Source of the DNA: Minisyncoccota bacterium
GTDB lineage: Bacteria; Patescibacteriota; Minisyncoccia; Phycocordibacterales; JACRKE01
Assembly (NCBI GenBank): GCA_041660505.1
Contig: JBAZWG010000001.1
Location: 541,776 to 605,775, forward strand
Direction of reading: 5' to 3'
DNA length: 64,000 nt
Shown here piece by piece: positions 3,541 to 61,057 of this stretch; position 1 is the first letter of the stretch; every line of letters begins with the position of its first letter. The notes under the pieces were generated by a model that saw nothing but the letters and a program-made list of their open reading frames with translations, did not search any database and had not been told where the DNA came from. Made by a program: the position numbers and the translations under genes.

Positions 3541-4101
3541 TTATTTTGACTTAGAAGGTTCAACTTTAGGCACCTTAAAGGTTGAACCTTCTAAGTCGCC
3601 CAAAATTTGAAGCAGTGCCGTCATGATAGTCATGGGTGATGGCGGGTCGCCCGGGATTTCATAATCTACCGGTATGGCACCGCGCGCACCGTCGAGTACG
3701 GCGTAGGAGCCTTTGAATATTCCGCCATTAATAGCGTCATCGCCGACCGCGACAACAATCTTCGGAGTCGGTGTTGCTTCATAAGAATGCATAAGCCCGT
3801 CATACATATTGCGAGAGACCGGGCCTGTCACCATCAGCATATCGGCATGGCGCGGGGAGGCGACGAAGTGAATGCCGAAACGTTCAACGTCATAATAAGG
3901 ATTGCCCAGAGCCACGAGCTCCTGCTCCTCTGCGTTGGTCCCGCCGGCGGTCACGACGCGGATGGCCAAGGAGCCATTAAAGATTTTTTTGACCTTAGCG
4001 CTTAGTTCCGCGCCGGCAGTGTGATATTCAGGAGGTAAGCCCATATCAACCGATTCTATCAGTCTGGGGGTTTTTATGATTTTGGAAATTAAATTAAGCA
4101 T
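3541..4101 (-). CDS. NuoB-like hydrogenase small-subunit homologue lacking all Fe-S ligating cysteines (Ehr-type)
   Basis: 186 aa with NuoB/Oxidored_q6-like spacing (..RHADMLMVTGPVS.., ..AVGDDAINGG.., ..IPGDPPSP..). The protein contains zero Cys. The canonical CCxxE, GxCxxxGG and GCPP positions read GG, D and D. The last ~18 codons overlap a palindromic repeat (copy A1). Confidence 0.7.
   Translation of the reverse strand: MLNLISKIIKTPRLIESVDMGLPPEYHTAGAELSAKVKKIFNGSLAIRVVTAGGTNAEEQELVALGNPYYDVERFGIHFVASPRHADMLMVTGPVSRNMYDGLMHSYEATPTPKIVVAVGDDAINGGIFKGSYAVLDGARGAIPVDYEIPGDPPSPMTIMTALLQILGDLEGSTFKVPKVEPSKSK
3548..3597. repeat. REPIN-like palindromic doublet, family A copy A1 (inside 3' coding end of NuoB-like gene)
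   Basis: gacttagaaggttcaac / 16-nt loop / gttgaaccttctaagtc forms a perfect 17-bp inverted repeat built on the AAGGTTCAACCTT / AAGGTTGAACCTT motif. Confidence 0.75.
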
Positions 4102-5633: not shown

Positions 5634-5677
5634 GGTTTCAAAGGTTCAACCTTATGCATCCAAAAGGTTGAACCTTA
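5632..5677. repeat. REPIN-like palindromic doublet, family A copy A2
   Basis: aaggttcaacctt (5641..5653), 10-nt loop, aaggttgaacctt (5664..5676). The two halves are reverse complements of each other. Confidence 0.75.
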
Positions 5678-18004: not shown

Positions 18005-19717
18005 ATGGAAACTAAGTCCTGCCAGAATTGCAAAGAAAATTTCGTCATCGAACCGGAAGATTTCGTTTTTTACGAAAAAATCAAAGTCCCCCCGCCGACT
18101 TTCTGTCCGGAGTGCCGTATGATCAGGCGATTCCTCTGGAGGAACGAGAGAACACTATATAAGCGTAAGTGTGATTTGTGTAGTAAAGACATAATTGCTA
18201 TGTATTCGGCAGATTCCGATTTTACAGTGTATTGTTCCGACTGCTGGTACTCCGACCAATGGGACCCAATGGAATACGGCAGCGATTATGATTTTTCCGT
18301 GCCATTTTTTTCTCAATTCGGGCTGTTGGTAAAGAAAGTTCCTCGGATAGCACTTGAGGGATATCAAAATTTAAATTCTCCATTCACTAATTACACATGG
18401 TTTTCGAAAGATGTTTATTTGTCTGCTTCCACGTTGTATTCGGAGAATGTTTTTAACTCCCAGGCAACATCTAACGGAGCAGATATATTCGATTGTGATA
18501 ATACTTCGAGATCTAATACTTGTCTTGATGTTGTGACGGCCGATAAATGTTCTCGCTGTTATTCTTGCATACAAGTTCAAGAAAGTCTGGATTCTCGTTT
18601 CCTTTACGATTGCAAAAATTGTACGAGTTGTATGTTAAGTCACAACCTGAGACACAAATCATACGTCCTAAGAAATAAACAGCTTACGAAAGAAGAGTAT
18701 GAAAAAGAAAAGCCTGATATAGGGAGTTTTAAAATTCAGTGCGAATGCGAGGCAGAATTTGCCCACCTGCGAAGCGGAGCGGTAACCAGATTCGCCTCTG
18801 TGACAAAGTCAGAAAATACCACCGGCGACTACATTACTAATTCCAAGAATATTTATCGTTCATTCGGTGTTGATAACGCCGAGAATATACGCTATGGATC
18901 CCGTGCCACATATATTAAAGATAGTATGGATGTCCACGGCGTCGGAAGCAGCGATGGGGCAGTTGAGTTATTGTATGAATTCATTAACGGCGGATACAAA
19001 GATTCACGAATGTTTTTTTCAGCAAATTCGTATGAAGGAATGCTGAACGCGTACTACTGTGATTATTGCAGAGGGTCAGAAAACGTATTCGGTTGTGTCG
19101 GTTTAAAAAAGAAGCAATATTGCATTCTTAATAAACAGTATTTAAAAGAGGAATATTTAGAGTTGGTGTCGAAAATAATCGAACACATGAACAAGATGCC
19201 ATACGTAGATGCTAGCGGCATCGAATATAAATACGGAGAATTTTTTCCATCGGAAATTGCACCATTTACCTATAACGAAAGTTTAGCACAAGAATATTTT
19301 CCGATAAGGCAAGATGTTGCCGAGACGGCTGGATATCGCTGGCGCAAACAAGAAGAAAAAAGTTATAGGATTACCATTTTGTCCAGTGCTCTGCCAGACC
19401 ACATCAACGACACCCCTGATTCTATCTTAAAAGAGGTTATAGGATGTGAACATCGTGCAGAATGTTCTGAACAGTGTACTGGTGCGTATAAAATAACACC
19501 GGCAGAATTGAATTTTCATCGCGCCAACGGAGTTGCCCTGTCTCGTTTATGTATGAACTGTCGGCATTCCGCTCAATTTAAAAAGAGAACACCAATGCAG
19601 TTATGGCATAGACATTGTATGAAAAAGGGTTGCCCAAACGAATTCGAAACCTCCTACGCCCCAGATCGCCCCGAGATCATCTATTGCGAGTCTTGCTATC
19701 AGCAGGAAGTCGTGTAG
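18005..19717 (+). CDS. Cysteine-rich multi-zinc-ribbon protein, paralogue A
   Basis: 570 aa, about 40 Cys mostly as CxxC pairs. N-terminus CQNCKENFVIEPEDFVFYEKIKVPPPTFCPECR. C-terminal tail YAPDRPEIIYCESCYQQEVV is shared with the 20365..22062 product. Confidence 0.7.
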   Translation: METKSCQNCKENFVIEPEDFVFYEKIKVPPPTFCPECRMIRRFLWRNERTLYKRKCDLCSKDIIAMYSADSDFTVYCSDCWYSDQWDPMEYGSDYDFSVPFFSQFGLLVKKVPRIALEGYQNLNSPFTNYTWFSKDVYLSASTLYSENVFNSQATSNGADIFDCDNTSRSNTCLDVVTADKCSRCYSCIQVQESLDSRFLYDCKNCTSCMLSHNLRHKSYVLRNKQLTKEEYEKEKPDIGSFKIQCECEAEFAHLRSGAVTRFASVTKSENTTGDYITNSKNIYRSFGVDNAENIRYGSRATYIKDSMDVHGVGSSDGAVELLYEFINGGYKDSRMFFSANSYEGMLNAYYCDYCRGSENVFGCVGLKKKQYCILNKQYLKEEYLELVSKIIEHMNKMPYVDASGIEYKYGEFFPSEIAPFTYNESLAQEYFPIRQDVAETAGYRWRKQEEKSYRITILSSALPDHINDTPDSILKEVIGCEHRAECSEQCTGAYKITPAELNFHRANGVALSRLCMNCRHSAQFKKRTPMQLWHRHCMKKGCPNEFETSYAPDRPEIIYCESCYQQEVV

Positions 19718-28644: not shown

Positions 28645-28652
28645 ACGCCCAG

Positions 28653-28688
28653 AGGTTCGACCTTAAGCACCAAAAAGGTCGAACCTCA
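28653..28688. repeat. REPIN-like palindromic doublet, family A copy A3 (variant GGTTCGACC)
   Basis: gaggttcgacctt / 10 nt / aaggtcgaacctc. Located between the membrane-protein gene and the recA 3' end. Confidence 0.7.
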
Positions 28689-46713: not shown

Positions 46714-47555
46714 GTACTCCATCCAGATATGCAAAAAATCCTCAACAAAAAACGCAGCGGTTAAGGAGATTCGCATCTGTGCGTACTCTTAAATCGCCAC
46801 AAGCGATTTTTTTTGTCCCAGAGGGACAATCCGCCGGTGAGGCGGGTGAGAGATTCATCAGAACGACCCGTAACTTGAAAATTTAATTCCATCGCATCAC
46901 TGGTGTTAACCAATTTTATTGGGGTCTACCATGATGAAGATGGGCAGGAAAAAGAAAGAAAAAAACAATTAAGCAAAGACGGTTTTCATATTTCCTAATA
47001 GGAAATATAAGAGCATATGGTGGATGCCTAGACTTTGAAAGGCGATGAAGGACGTAGCATGGCTGCGATAAGCTTCGGGGAGGTGCCTAGCAACCTTTGA
47101 TCCGGAGATGTCCGAATGGGGAAACCTTCATGACGATGAGTCATGAGACTCGTACTAATTCTACGAGATCGCACACCCTGGGAAGTGAAACATCTCAGTA
47201 CCAGGAGGAAAATAAACAAAATGTATTCGAATGTGGGATGTGGTGCGGTATAGTCCGCAGTACATCCTACATTCGTTGTATTCCCTAAGTAGCGGCGAGC
47301 GAAAAGGGAGAAGCCCAAACCGAATTTTTTCGCAAGAAAAACTTCGGTGTTATAAGGCAGTGATATAGAATTTATTCTAGTAGAGTTACAAAACAGCATA
47401 ATAATCGAATCGACTGGAAAGTCGAGCCACAGAAGGTAATGGCCCTGTAGATGAAATTATGTTGTCTCTAATTACTGTTCTTGAGTACCCCGGGACATGA
47501 TAAGCTTGGGGGAAGTCAGCGGCACTAACCGCTAAGGCTAAATACTTTCAAAGAT

Positions 47556-47594
<39 letters not shown>

Positions 47595-48309
47595 GCCCGG
47601 TGAGGGCGTTGAAATAAACCTGAAACCATATGTTTACAAGGAGTCGGAGCGGATGGCGCAAGCCATGCCGCGACGGCGTGCCTATTGAAGAATGAGCCAA
47701 CGAGTTTATATGTACTGCTAGGCTAATCGCGTTAACCCGCGAGGAGTCATAGGGAAACCAAGTGTTAATAGCGCGTCACCCTGTTTACAGGGGTGTAGTA
47801 CATGTAAGACCCGAAGCCAGAGCGAGCTTACCATGAGCAGGGTGAACCATCGAGAAATCGATGGGGAGGCCCGAACCCGTATGTCGTACAATGCATTGGG
47901 ATGACTTGTGGTAAGAAGTGAAAAGCTAATCGAGCCTGGTAATAGCTGGTTCTCTCCGAAATAGCTTTTGGGTTAGCGTCACGTGTTCCATGTGGGGGTA
48001 GAGCACTGGAAGGTCTCGACAGGTCGAAAGATCGCGAGACCTATCAAACTCCGAATACCACATGCTAAAAGCGTGGCAGTTAGACTGCGGGGGCTAAGCT
48101 CCGTTGGTCAAAAGGGGAACAGCCCAGATCTCAATCTAAGGTCCCTAAATCTACGTTAAGTGCATCACAAGGAGGTGAAGTTTCGTTGACAATGAGGAGG
48201 TTGGCTTAGAAGCAGCCACCCTTGAAAGAAAGCGTAATAGCTCACTCATCGAGAGACTTCGCGCCGAAGATAATCGGGGCTCAAACGTAGTACCGAAGGT
48301 GAGGACTTG

Positions 48310-48388
48310 AGGACTTCATTTTTGCAAATTCAGAAGGTTCAACCTTTTGAATGCCTAAGGTTGAACCTTGGGGCAAAAATGAAGTCCT
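48310..48388. repeat. REPIN-like palindromic doublet, family A copy A4, at the tip of an extended 23S helix (H45 region)
   Basis: aggacttcatttttgc ... gaaggttcaacctt / ttgaatgcct / aaggttgaacctt ... gcaaaaatgaagtcct. The repeat doublet is enclosed by a further 16-bp inverted repeat. Confidence 0.65.
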
Positions 48389-49190
48389 TGAGTGGTAGGA
48401 GAGTTTTCGTGTCCGCAGTGAAGCCTAAGGGGTGACCCGTGGTGGAGCGACACGAAGTACGAATGTTGGCACAAGTAACCGCAATAGCGTTTAGAACACG
48501 CTACGCCGAAAGACTAAGGTTTCCTTCGCGATGTCAATCAGCGAAGGGTTAGTCGGTCCTAAGGGAATGACGAATGTCGGACCCGATGGAATACAGGTTA
48601 ATATTCCTGTACTTTTTTGTAGTCTGATGAAATGACGAAGTGTAGTATGCATGGCGCATTATGGATTTGTGTTTGCGCATCCGCCTTGATTCCCAGGAAA
48701 ATCCGGGAGTCTGTCTTTAATGACGACGGTGAAGGTGTGTGAAGATTCCGCGATTCGTCAAAGGAGATCATGCAAAGCGCGCTTCCAAGAAAAGTTTCTA
48801 AAGATAACTACAGAAAAACCGTACCGTAAACCGACACAGGTAGTCAGGTCGAGCAGACCAAGGCGAACGAGTGAGTGCATCCCAAGGAACTCGGCAAAAA
48901 AGCGGCCGTAACTTCGGAATAAGGCCTGCCCACGCAAGTGGGCTACAACAAAAGTTTCTCTGGCGACTGTTTATCAAAAACACAGCTCCCTGCGAACTCG
49001 TAAGAGGATGTATAGGGGGTGACGCCTGACCAATGCCAGAAGGTCAACCGGTGACCGTGTGCGCATCACACTGCGTGTGATGCAGTTTAAATATTTAAAT
49101 ATTTAAATTTGCATCGCGCTTGGCGCGATGCGTATGCTGTTCGTCGTAAGCCCTGGTGAATGTCGGCAATAACTATAATTGTCCTAAGGT

Positions 49191-49510
49191 TTTCGGATGG
49201 TCGCAAGACAATTCGAAAAGAATTGGGACAATTAGAGTACTGTGTAGATAAATTAGTCATAATAAGTCATTAATGCAAGTCAAAGACGATAGCGCTACCT
49301 TATCTAGCTATATGCTGTAGAGTCTGTACATTCATTTATACAGATGAGCAGCAGGGAAGTCGCCTCTACGGCGACCCCTCAGAGACTGAACGCTGGACAT
49401 GAAATTCTCCTCACGGAGAAGATTATGAAGATATAGTCCGTACTCGTAAGCGATTACGAGAGTTTTGTAGAAATACAAAACCCATGTCGCAAGGCATTGG
49501 TAACATATAG
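49191..49510 (+). mobile_element. Group I intron in 23S rRNA (E. coli ~1917-1931 region), no homing-endonuclease ORF
   Basis: Inserted between exon gtcctaaggT and agcgcaattccttgtcggg. The 5' exon ends in U and the intron ends in G. Contains the P7-region elements cagagactgaacgctgg (R-like) and aagatatagtcc (S element, identical to the Tetrahymena consensus). Confidence 0.6.
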
Positions 49511-50113
49511 AGCGCAATTCCTTGTCGGGTAAGTTCCGACGTGCACGAATGGCGTAACGACTGGAGAACTGTCTCGGGATGTTGCTCGGTGAAAATACAG
49601 TGCCGGTGAAGATGCCGGCTACCTGCAGATAGACGAAAAGACCCCAGGAGCTTTACTGTAGCTTGATATTGATTATACGTTTTGTCTGCGTAGCATAGAT
49701 GGGAGGATTTGAGAGTATGATTTCGGTTGTGCTTGATCCGTCAGTGAAATACCATTCTTATGAAGTGTATAATCTAACCTGCAAGGATAAACCTTGCGGA
49801 GACAGTATCTGGTAGGCAGTTTTAGTGGGGCGCTATCCTCCTAAAGAGTAACGGAGGAGTTTATTAAGGTTGGCTAGCCGCGAATGGAAACCGTGGCGAT
49901 AGTGTAATGGCACAAGCCAGCTTAACTGCAAGACGTACATGTCGAGCAGATGCGAAAGCAGAACATAGTGAACCGACCATGCGCATTAGAGGCGGTGGAA
50001 GATTATCGGACAAAAGCTACCCTGGGGATAACAGGCTGGTACTGCCCAAGCGTCCATAGCGACGGCAGTGTTCGGCACCTCGATGTCGGCTCATCTTATC
50101 CTGGGGCTGGAGA

Positions 50114-50146
<33 letters not shown>

Positions 50147-50173
50147 AAGATACGCGAGCTGGGTTCAGACCGT

Positions 50174-50503
50174 ATAGCACCTAAATTTAAATATTTAAAT
50201 TTTGAAATATTTAAACAGTGGGTTTTATACCGTCTGAACCCTCGAGAATATGATATACAACAAACCACATCATACTGTTTACTTGAATCACGGCGGTCGT
50301 AGATAGAGATATCTATGATAGAGCTGACTTATATCGGTGGAGTCCCATGCGGATCACACCTAGGGAATTTCTAATATTTAAATATTTAAACATTTAAATT
50401 TTGGACGACCCGTAGAGACTAAACGTCAGCCATCTTCATTCATAATTTATTGTGAGAAAGATGAAGCTATAGTCCATGCCCGTAGCAATACGGTGAATAC
50501 ATG
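50174..50503 (+). mobile_element. Group I intron in 23S rRNA (E. coli ~2593-2600 region), no homing-endonuclease ORF
   Basis: Inserted between exon gggttcagaccgT and cgtgagacagg. Ends in G. Contains agactaaacgtc (R element) and aagctatagtcc (S element). Confidence 0.6.
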
Positions 50504-50865
50504 CGTGAGACAGGTTGGTCTCCTATCTACTGCAGGCGTTGAACATTGAGAAGATTTACTCCTAGTACGAGAGGACCGGAGTGAACTGACCGCTGGTCTA
50601 CCTGTTGTCCTGCCAAGGGCACCGCAGGGTAGCTAAGTCGGGAAAGGATAATCTCTGAAAGCATCTAAGAGAGAAGCCAACTTCAAGATTAATGTTCGTT
50701 ATGAGACTCGTGAGAGATGATCACGTTGATAGGTGTTCGGTGTAAGCATCGCAAGATGTTGAGCCAAGACATACTAATAAGTCCATTCCTATTAGGAAAT
50801 ATGGAAGTCGTCGAAACTTAAATTATTTTTTCTTTTAAAACCTGCAAATATAAAGTTGAATGTTT

Positions 50866-50978
50866 AGTTTTGGTGGTTTGTCGGAGGGGTCACACCTGTT
50901 CTCATTCCGAACACAGAAGTTAAGCCCTCTTGAAGCGATGGTACTCCTAACGGGGGAGAGTAGCTAGCCGCCAGAACT
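50866..50978 (+). rRNA. rrf: 5S ribosomal RNA
   Basis: ggtggtttgtcggaggggtcacacctgttctcattccgaacacagaagttaagccc...gggggagagtagctagccgccagaac matches the 5S consensus helices and loops. Confidence 0.85.
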
Positions 50979-52974: not shown

Positions 52975-53013
52975 GAGGTTCGACCTTTCAGATGTCCTAT
53001 AAGGTCGAACCTC
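52975..53013. repeat. REPIN-like palindromic doublet, family A copy A5
   Basis: gaggttcgacctt / tcagatgtcctat / aaggtcgaacctc. Lies immediately after the ftsW stop. Confidence 0.7.
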
Positions 53014-58700: not shown

Positions 58701-58779
58701 CCCTCGCCTTGCGGTTCTCGTCTCGCCAGGTGGCAGACGGGACCGCTTTGTTTTTAGCCTAATTTTGTTACACTACCAA

Positions 58780-58815
58780 TGTTGAACCTTGGGCATATAG
58801 AAGGTTAAACCTTCT
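58780..58815. repeat. REPIN-like palindromic doublet, family A copy A6 (degenerate)
   Basis: gttgaacctt / gggcatatag / aaggttaaaccttc, just upstream of folD. Confidence 0.55.
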
Positions 58816-59726: not shown

Positions 59727-59745
59727 TTGGAAGTTTCACTTCCAA
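59727..59745. repeat. Palindrome TTGGAAGT-N5-ACTTCCAA copy P1 (upstream of transposase gene; loop inverted relative to P2/P3)
   Basis: ttggaagtttcacttccaa. Two more copies sit inside the downstream gene at 59945..59963 and 60236..60254. Confidence 0.7.
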
Positions 59746-59763
59746 AAAGTTATAATATGGAGC

Positions 59764-60450
59764 ATGCACATAAATTTAGAGTTTGCCGAGGAAGAGTACT
59801 ACCATGTTTACAATAGGGGCGTAGAAAAACGCAGTATTGTGGTCGATGAAAAAGATTCCGCCCGATTTATACAAAGTTTGATCCAGTTCAATTCGCTCAA
59901 GCCGATAGGGAGTATTTTCGAAAACACTTACGAATACAAGAAAATTGGAAGTGAAACATCCAAAGAACTAACAAAGAAGAATGAAGCCCTTGTAGAAATT
60001 ATCGCATATTGCTTAAATCCCAATCATTTTCACATGATACTTTCACCAGTTGTTGAAGATGGTATTAGTAAGTTCATGCATCGTCTGGGAACCGGTTATA
60101 CGAAATATTTTAATAAGAGGCACAAACGCTCCGGGTCGCTTTTTCAGGGATTGTTTAAAGCGAAACACCTGGAAGATAACGACTATTTACTCCATGTGAG
60201 CGCCTATGTAAACCTAAACGACCGCGTGCATAAAATTGGAAGTGAAACTTCCAAAGTTTCAAAATTGGTGCGGAAGAGTTACGGGGAGTATGAAGCGGGG
60301 AGTGGCGGATTCTGCCAGAAAGATGTTATACTTGATCAGTTTAAGAATAGAAAAGAGTATACGGATTTCTGTGAAGATTCACTCGAACTTATGCACGAGA
60401 CAAAAGACGAGCAAAATGAACTAAAAGATCTTAATTTATTAGAATACTAA
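59764..60450 (+). CDS. IS200/RAYT-like HUH tyrosine (Y1) transposase homologue carrying two in-frame palindrome insertions
   Basis: 228 aa from ATG 59764. The ORF-track N-terminal extension overlapping folD is rejected. COG1943-like blocks YYHVYNRGVEKRSIV.DE.D, the HUH motif NPNHFHMIL, GSLFQGLFKAKH, and DYLLHVSAYVNLN (candidate catalytic Tyr). A TATAAT lies at 59751..59756. Confidence 0.6.
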   Translation: MHINLEFAEEEYYHVYNRGVEKRSIVVDEKDSARFIQSLIQFNSLKPIGSIFENTYEYKKIGSETSKELTKKNEALVEIIAYCLNPNHFHMILSPVVEDGISKFMHRLGTGYTKYFNKRHKRSGSLFQGLFKAKHLEDNDYLLHVSAYVNLNDRVHKIGSETSKVSKLVRKSYGEYEAGSGGFCQKDVILDQFKNRKEYTDFCEDSLELMHETKDEQNELKDLNLLEY

Positions 60451-60454
60451 TTTC

Positions 60455-61057
60455 TTGGACATGAGATGTCCAAAAGTTATGAGAGTAGTAAAAGAAACAT
60501 CAACGACTATCCTTCTTAAGGATTACGAATTTATCCCGATGCTCATGGCTGTAATTATGTGTGCCTTGGCTATTTTTTTTGTCTGGTTTCTCTCTGTTCC
60601 CGGACAATTCAAGCGGCCAGAAATTTGGGCTTCTCTGTTGTTCGTGTCAGCGTATGCATTTGCATTAATATGGACAATAGAAATGTTAACTTTTGAATTC
60701 GATAAATCGCAGAACAAACTGATTATTATTAAGAAAAAAATTACAAAAAAAACGCAGAAATCGTATACAATCACTGATATAGAAAAAATCTGGACGAGCC
60801 AATACGAAGGACAACGCCGGAAAAAAGGCGACATGTGGAGTGTGTACCTGTTGTTAAAAAGTGGAAATAAAGTTCCTCTAACCCCTGGGTTGAGTACAAA
60901 TAGGGTACATCCGTTGTATAATCCCAAAATTCCTAAATATGTAGGACGTTTAGCAAAGTGGCTGCAAGTTCCCCTTGAAGAGGGTAAGGAACTCGGCGTG
61001 AAAGAGGCGCTTAATAAAAGCTACGATAGCTCTAGTCACTCGGAAGAAGAAGCATAA
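60455..61057 (+). CDS. Hypothetical membrane protein
   Basis: 200 aa. Two TM helices near the N-terminus, then a Lys-rich soluble domain. Confidence 0.45.
   Translation: MDMRCPKVMRVVKETSTTILLKDYEFIPMLMAVIMCALAIFFVWFLSVPGQFKRPEIWASLLFVSAYAFALIWTIEMLTFEFDKSQNKLIIIKKKITKKTQKSYTITDIEKIWTSQYEGQRRKKGDMWSVYLLLKSGNKVPLTPGLSTNRVHPLYNPKIPKYVGRLAKWLQVPLEEGKELGVKEALNKSYDSSSHSEEEA

Follow-up and report, generated by a model that had tools for sequence, protein, structure and literature searches.

The DNA analyzed here, referred to below as the window, is a 64-kb stretch (64,000 nucleotides) that contains a 23S rRNA gene at positions 46994-50798 of the forward strand (Rfam RF02541, 2245 bits, model positions 1-2925) and, on the same strand, a short 5S gene of 108 nt at positions 50869-50976. 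A short 5S has also been reported in Parcubacteria. Protein matches assign the DNA to a MAG of Candidatus Paceibacterota (Parcubacteria, CPR/Patescibacteria), an uncultured ultra-small bacterium, on a contig of 719 kb. No 16S gene was found anywhere in the 64-kb window, in which the 23S-5S pair is unlinked from any 16S, and a search for tRNA genes across the window returned none. The 23S gene carries two group I introns together with an insertion in helix 45. The introns matched Rfam Intron_gpI at 49184-49460 and 50275-50495, and comparison with the relative L015, in which both are missing, placed their boundaries at about 49190-49511 and about 50173-50460. Both introns are common to the window and another relative, L001, and no ORF of at least 100 aa was present in either of them; in the more distantly related L010, LAGLIDADG ORFs occur in introns at positions other than those of the window. 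The sequences flanking the 23S gene (46889-47005 with 50785-50875) were found to pair through 27 contiguous bp and further helices, giving a processing stem of -63 kcal/mol compared with -27 +/- 4 for shuffled sequences; by analogy, this stem would be of the kind cut by RNase III in other bacteria. We also observed a 56-nt hairpin extension in a different 23S helix, at about 47220-47276 (Rfam model ~228-231), where the window and L001 are aligned without a large indel and where no match to a repeat family was seen.

Alignment of positions 47900-48700 to the Rfam LSU model left ~70 bases unaligned in a single apical loop, at model positions 1218/1219. The hairpin holding these bases sits between ACCGAAGGUGAGG and GGUAGGAGAG (flanked by ACCGAAG...GGUAGGAGAG), and the insert site is the apical loop of helix 45 (E. 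coli ~1164-1185). This helix is one of the three classical sites of intervening sequences (IVSs) in 23S rRNA (PMC4990558). As evident from the Rfam alignment and the folds, the complete helix 45 of the window spans 89 nt on the forward strand (48305-48393). It contains a perfect 16-bp inverted repeat, aggacttcatttttgc / gcaaaaatgaagtcct, at 48310-48325 and 48373-48388, exactly where the preliminary description of this DNA had placed a 16-bp stem within the 23S helix. With three G-U pairs counted, the inverted-repeat search and the fold extended this repeat to an uninterrupted stem of 21 bp, ACUUGAGGACUUCAUUUUUGC / GCAAAAAUGAAGUCCUUGAGU, with its 5' arm at 48305-48325 and its 3' arm at 48373-48393, each including the corresponding 16-nt arm. 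The stem is capped by a three-way junction bearing two hairpins: hairpin 1, AUUCAGAAGGU / ACCUUUUGAAU, at 48328-48352, which combines the first repeat unit with flank-spacer pairing, and hairpin 2, CCUAAGGUU / AACCUUGGG, at 48354-48372, which was recovered by both the fold and the inverted-repeat search. The fold energy was -53.6 kcal/mol (z = -6.6), and none of 200 shuffled sequences folded as well. The 89-nt helix in its Y shape had an energy of -50.6 kcal/mol with an outer-stem pairing probability of about 1. A single rod-like fold of the tip was rejected, being 3.5 kcal/mol worse than the two-hairpin Y fold. Additionally, a group I intron identity was rejected for this segment, which gave no Intron_gpI match and, at 68-79 nt, is too short.

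At the base of the 5' arm, ACUUG(AGG) resembles the helix 45 base when compared with the relatives L008 and L001, and the first four or five base pairs (ACUUG/UGAGU), which are like the L008 helix 45 base, are probably native, with the remainder probably new. The outer-stem arm had no second match in the 64-kb window at up to 3 mismatches, and the outer 13-16 bp of the stem lie outside the repeat family described below. Because the outer stem is unique in the window, a plain "doublet dropped into a tetraloop" does not explain the whole insert; the outer stem could be older than the doublet, could have arrived with it or could have grown later. An exact 8-nt tandem repeat, TGAGGACT twice, occupies positions 48300-48315 at the 5' junction of the helix 45 extension; it could reflect a duplication at insertion or be a by-product of the stem pairing.

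The tip of the helix is a 36-nt doublet, AAGGTTCAACCTT-10 nt-AAGGTTGAACCTT, at 48334-48369, composed of a unit at 48334-48346, a spacer at 48347-48356 and a second unit at 48357-48369, and it is oriented on the minus strand according to the family spacer. The 14-mer motif GAAGGTTCAACCTT, searched with up to 2 mismatches, gave 14 matches in the window compared with 0.44 expected. All 14 belong to four doublets with an identical 23-nt unit spacing, starting at 3555, 5641, 48334 and 58778, which we refer to as family A. When the copies were aligned with their spacers, the 36-nt consensus was AAGGTTSAACCTT-ARGCAYYNAA-AAGGTTSAACCTT. The 23S doublet was the best nhmmer match (minus strand, E = 3.7e-11); read on the minus strand, it was identical to the copy at 5641 in 34 of 36 positions, spacer included, and it matched the copy at 3555 in 31 of 36. 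The assignment of the tip to family A, already made in the preliminary description, is borne out by both the excess of motif matches and the 34/36 identity, and every element named in that description was found where it had been placed.

The other family A copies of the window all lie on the forward strand. The copy at 5641-5676, which is the closest to the 23S copy, is located in the gap that separates the rplK stop (5633) from the dcd start (5690). The copy at 3555-3590, whose extended arms span 3548-3597, lies upstream of the next gene, 16 nt from its start, and within 3541-3597 it coincides with the final ~17 codons of a NuoB-like ORF (3541-4101, minus strand), whose C-terminus it appears to supply. 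Both of these copies fold as single long hairpins. The copy at 58778-58813 is degenerate, lies 9 nt upstream of the folD ATG and is orthologous to L001:16626-16661. A profile search also revealed a sister subfamily, A2, with two forward-strand copies. One of them, GAGGTTCGACCTT-aagcaccaaa-AAGGTCGAACCTC, lies between convergent genes at 28652-28687, and the other, with a different 13-nt loop, lies 11 nt after the RodA stop at 52976-53012 and is orthologous to L006:2114-2149; the window and L006 have identical A2 arms at this site, with loops of 13 nt and 10 nt, respectively. The window thus holds six doublets (four of family A and two of A2), each of which consists of two inverted 13-nt arms and a 10-nt spacer (a 13-nt loop at 52976). 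The flanks of the six copies revealed no consistent shared duplication, and neither a GTAG nor a CGTC tag was present in any family A copy or its immediate flank. No U-tract follows the family A hairpins, and a Rho-independent terminator was ruled out for that reason. The doublet pattern gave no matches in the viral contigs.

Among the relatives, copies of the family were found at varying sites. An identical 36-mer occurs at non-homologous positions in L001 (upstream of folD) and L014 (just after msc), and the L006 copy after RodA is identical to the window copy at 28652. The position upstream of folD is the only site shared by the window and L001, and there the window copy has decayed to 29/36 identity. 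In the L001 genome, family A is present elsewhere and missing in the 23S gene. This dispersal pattern is more in keeping with an element that copies itself and spreads than with a functional motif fixed in place, and the repeat family is older than the 23S insertion. We infer the mobility of family A from this distribution; no transposase is linked to the family. GCAYC is common to the loops of family A, of A2 and of the L010 element described below, while their arms differ, which hints at one superfamily recognized via its loop.

To place the insertion among relatives, we compared helix 45 across the available loci. The gene order of L001 is that of the window (L10, L12, a 198-aa ORF, msc, 23S, 5S, an ORF and RodA), with RodA about 76-77% identical, and the order around the 23S gene is the same in the window, L001, L015 and L018. 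The 23S genes of the window and L001 were 91.7% identical, introns included, and the sole large indel between them was one of 68 nt at helix 45. In L001, helix 45 is a plain ACUAUGCC-GCAA-GGCAUAUGU hairpin of 21 nt; the helix measures 30 nt in L008, 28 nt in L015, 28 nt in L018 and 97 nt in L010, compared with 89 nt in the window. The short helices of the relatives have GCAA, UUGC or similar loops on stems of 8-14 bp. The insertion had been described as ~90 nt long; this figure suits the whole helix, whereas the net insertion relative to L001, the nearest relative with a readable 23S, is 68 nt. The helix 45 insertion is derived and not ancestral, and the short plain helix 45 of L001, L008, L015 and L018 agrees with the proposal that the tip came from a dispersed repeat. 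The observation that would have spoken against that proposal, the same tip in relatives lacking family A, was not made; L001 has family A and a short helix.

L001 is the only relative with a readable helix 45 that is near enough to date the insertion; in the relatives with RodA at 78-83% or msc at 70-87% identity, the contigs end inside or before the 23S gene, short of helix 45. A 25-mer shared with L001 retrieved one distant MAG (L008) in the genome scan and only the contig L002 in the metagenome scan, and a 22-mer from the 5' flank had no match in the genome scan. In the RodA tree, the window and L010 fall in different sub-clades, each beside a genome with a short helix 45, so that two independent gains of a long helix 45 are the parsimonious reading.

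The long helix of L010 has a sequence unrelated to that of the window. Its tip, AGAAGCCTTGCTTCC-aaatgcatca-GGAAGCAAGGCTTCT, is a 40-nt hairpin repeat that occurs three times within 4 kb of rDNA (L010 positions 62-101, 818-857 and 3987-4026), the sites being helix 45, an 86-nt insertion in a 23S hairpin at Rfam ~688 and a LAGLIDADG-containing intron. Each copy is enclosed by a different outer stem of 15-24 bp, and no copy was found in the other 13 kb of the L010 locus. Since the 97-nt helix of L010 is unrelated to that of the window and is tipped by a repeat of its own genome, helix 45 has been invaded at least twice.

Taken together, the site, size, shape and sporadic distribution of the segment identify it as a helix-45 IVS, and our preferred reading, to which we assign a probability of roughly 0.78, is an IVS-type insertion in the helix 45 apical loop of the single 23S gene, with a repeat-derived core. 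In particular, the insert lies in the helix 45 loop, a tetraloop has been converted into an extended stem-loop, and the extension is present sporadically among relatives. A mobile or copy-prone hairpin element would have landed in the DNA of the helix 45 loop, whether the helix was still short or had been lengthened beforehand. The insertion would have persisted because the tip of helix 45, which faces the solvent on the 50S subunit, is a classic insertion-tolerant site. Bacterial 23S rRNA has been known to contain IVSs since about 1990. The helix-45 IVSs of Salmonella, Yersinia, Proteus/Providencia, Campylobacter and Helicobacter (about 90-150 nt, no ORF) resemble the window segment in their site, similar size and long complementary termini, as well as in their sporadic occurrence among close relatives and in being expected to be phenotypically silent (PMC4990558). 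The core of the window segment can be traced to hairpin repeats dispersed in the genome, whereas the literature covered gave no such derivation for the classical IVSs; its tip is a Y-shaped double hairpin. RNase III excision and 23S fragmentation are known for the classical cases and would be predictions for the window segment.

Regarding the fate of the RNA, the transcript would fold into a long duplex, which RNase III could cut out without religation. The 23S would then be left in two parts, one of about 1.3 kb and one of about 1.8 kb, a fragmentation also known from Salmonella, Yersinia and Coxiella. A 21-bp duplex is about the minimal substrate of RNase III. The gene for this enzyme, rnc, is kept in at least 90% of CPR genomes (PMC12641178), and the helix 45 IVSs of other bacteria are RNase III substrates that are removed without religation (PMC4990558). 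On the strength of the minimal-size duplex, the prevalence of rnc, the processing stem around the 23S gene, these IVS precedents and the RNase III fate suggested for short CPR insertions (PMC11270868), excision seems to us somewhat the better supported outcome, with odds slightly above even by analogy. A tblastn search with E. coli Rnc, which covered the 64 kb of the window out of the 719-kb contig and the relatives' loci, found no rnc in them. The preliminary description had concluded that the mature rRNA would carry the segment; this does not follow, because helix 45 inserts of this kind are textbook examples of IVSs excised by RNase III (PMC4990558), and although excision had been listed there as an option, the IVS class had not been named.

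The same origin is compatible with a different fate, in which the 89-nt helix escapes RNase III and stays on the surface of the mature 23S rRNA as a retained expansion segment. We consider this outcome a serious contender, if a little under an even chance. Uncut 23S rRNA containing an IVS is functional in RNase III-deficient Salmonella. IVSs are also phenotypically silent in E. coli (PMC4990558), the Y-shaped tip and the G-U pairs may not suit the local RNase III, and other modest extensions of the same 23S, such as the 56 nt near 47220-47276, resemble ordinary expansions. Set against retention, however, the uninterrupted duplex of 21 bp is close to the smallest that RNase III can cut, excision has been reported in Salmonella and Yersinia for inserts of about 90-110 nt in helix 45 (PMC4990558), and rnc is nearly universal in CPR (PMC12641178).

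Other accounts concern where the segment came from. The whole 79 nt of 48310-48388 may be one MITE-like unit with 16-bp termini (AGGACTTCATTTTTGC...), or the doublet may be nested in an earlier hairpin element. In favor of such a unit, the 16-bp termini are perfect, and the tip copies of L010 likewise sit inside long outer stems; but those three outer stems all differ, which marks outer stems as locus-specific and not as family termini, and the outer arm of the window segment is unmatched elsewhere in the 64 kb, even when 3 mismatches are allowed. As to a target-site duplication, only TG/CTTGAG is repeated on both flanks of the segment, a repeat that is too short to support a MITE-like unit and is confounded with the pairing of the stem itself. 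We regard this account as unlikely. Marginally less probable still is the view that the doublets are functional hairpins of the host, serving as transcript 3'-end, terminator or stability elements or as paired operators of a dimeric DNA-binding protein, in which case the helix 45 copy would have arisen by recombination or gene conversion or would have an RNA-level role, for example as a processing signal. Nearly all copies outside the rRNA lie ~5-16 nt from a stop or start codon, although in compact genomes any intergenic insert necessarily adjoins one or the other. The copy upstream of folD has been kept in two lineages, whereas at most sites presence or absence varies among relatives. The conservation of the RGCAYC loop while the A, A2 and L010 arms differ looks like selection on a recognized hairpin, but it is equally expected of a transposase recognition site. 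Furthermore, no U-tract follows the hairpins, and an operator or terminator within a 23S helix would be functionally senseless.

An ancestral helix 45 expansion with chance similarity to the family, or an assembly artefact joining a repeat into rDNA, is highly improbable. Nothing speaks positively for either, apart from the contig being derived from a MAG. Against them stand the 34/36 identity, which includes the spacer, and the identical spacing; the short helix 45 of four relatives; the seamless insert, whose unique and perfectly complementary outer stem is absent from the other copies; and the 23S gene order, which is as in L001, L015 and L018.

The element at the tip had also been called a REPIN. 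In shape and dispersal, family A answers to this term: its doublets are inverted short repeats with a spacer that can form a hairpin, and the six A/A2 copies in 64 kb are mainly extragenic and vary in presence and absence among relatives. The window also contains a gene for a RAYT-like HUH/Y1 transposase, found by tblastn, Pfam and NCBIfam at 59764-60450 on the forward strand. Its product showed 33% identity to the RAYT-like protein of L010 (tblastn, E = 1.5e-29) and matched Pfam Y1_Tnp (E = 1e-8), while its NCBIfam REP_Tyr_transpos score of 29 bits was under the cut-off of 80. In the region 59727-60470, a palindrome (TTGGAAGTttcACTTCCAAA ahead of the gene; TTGGAAGTnnnACTTCCAAA at 59727, 59945 and 60236) flanks the gene and interrupts it; the internal copies at 59945 and 60236 are in frame, and each encodes KIGSETSK. 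Beyond the stop codon lies another palindrome, GGACATgagATGTCC. Family A was not found flanking the RAYT-like gene in the window, its flanks being TTGGAAGTnnnACTTCCAAA and GGACATgagATGTCC. Located 11 kb from the 23S insert, the gene is a candidate for the mobilizing enzyme, not demonstrably linked to family A.

Compared with the REP/REPIN and RAYT systems of Pseudomonas and E. coli, the window is similar in having short inverted doublets that form hairpins, dispersed and mostly extragenic copies, and a RAYT-like Y1 gene, and L010 in having a RAYT-like gene flanked by its own REP hairpins. In contrast, family A lacks the GTAG/CGTC tag, and its conserved part is the loop; moreover, the RAYT-like gene of the window scores below the NCBIfam cut-off and is flanked by a palindrome that is not of family A. 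In most REP families, a GTAG or CGTC tetranucleotide tag is found at one end of the REP (PMC3733652). Given the other palindrome at the RAYT-like gene and the tagless family A, "REPIN", the name used in the preliminary description, is fair as a description of shape and unproven as a membership. In L010, the RAYT-like gene at 18540-19300 has its own REP hairpin (CACACAGGACTGCCC...GGGCAGTCCTGTGTG) on either side and lies upstream of folD, in the place taken by a family A doublet in the window and L001. In the literature covered on REP elements and rRNA, we found no insertion into an rRNA helix.

We compared the segment with further known systems. Tsurumaki et al. (2024) described many short non-intron insertions at 23IS2/23IS4 of CPR 23S genes and suggested that these are RNase III-type IVSs (PMC11270868). 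The insertions resemble the window segment in phylum-level group, in length (<200 nt), in the lack of an ORF and of a group I/II match, and in lying at IVS sites, and the window locus is very probably a member of this set. The window differs in that the survey, in the passages covered, describes neither a link of the inserts to genomic repeat families nor their recurrent, lineage-specific turnover (PMC11270868). The helix-45 IVSs of Coxiella burnetii and Leptospira (428-759 nt, with an S23p ORF) occupy the same helix, and the stem on which RNase III acts in Coxiella (28 bp) is built from a terminal inverted repeat, as is the stem in the window. In Coxiella, the 23S gene that carries the IVS likewise contains two group I introns. 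For this shared combination Coxiella was considered as the source of the DNA, and it was rejected because the 16S is unlinked and the protein matches name Paceibacterota. Unlike the Coxiella and Leptospira IVSs, the window insert has no ORF, is five to ten times shorter and has a different origin. Rickettsia palindromic elements (RPEs), which are 100-150 bp long and lie mostly in protein-coding genes, insert into functional genes of a reduced genome and are tolerated at the surface of the gene product. They are similar to the window segment as palindromic repeats inside a functional gene of a reduced genome, whereas there is no sequence relation between the two.

The origin of IVSs has been called unclear, with a leftover of transposition as a long-standing guess (PMC4990558). 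What is new in our results is that the core of an IVS has been matched to a hairpin-repeat family of the genome that carries it, the site being empty in a sister genome, and that an independent event of the same kind is seen in a second lineage. The core match, the empty site and the second lineage turn the transposition guess into a testable question within one clade. Within the limited literature covered, we found no earlier account in which a REP-like repeat makes up an rRNA IVS or a MITE lies within one, and none of REP-type repeats in CPR. In practical terms, small hairpin inserts in the insertion-rich rRNA genes of CPR affect probes, primers, length expectations and rRNA calling in MAGs. 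The helix 45 insertion points to no new mechanism of ribosome function.

A broader and more tentative idea, which we hold to be doubtful at present, is that Paceibacteria harbor small hairpin elements forming one superfamily, in which a 10-nt loop (RGCAYCNAA) is conserved while the arms co-vary and differ between genomes; these elements would settle preferentially in the loops of existing rDNA hairpins and seed IVSs. If true, hairpin-seeded IVSs would offer a live and traceable view of IVS origin, and the locus-specific outer stems would reflect hairpin-loop targeting or growth of the palindrome after insertion. The rDNA targets under such a superfamily would be the tip of helix 45, a further hairpin of the 23S and the peripheral stems of introns. 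Finally, we observed an AC-rich/GU-rich hairpin of ~100 nt in L015 (4862-4985), inserted in helix 25 of the 23S gene, which shares an identical 30-nt block with a hairpin inside an L010 intron (3735-3885); this common block points to a further, putatively mobile hairpin family in rDNA.
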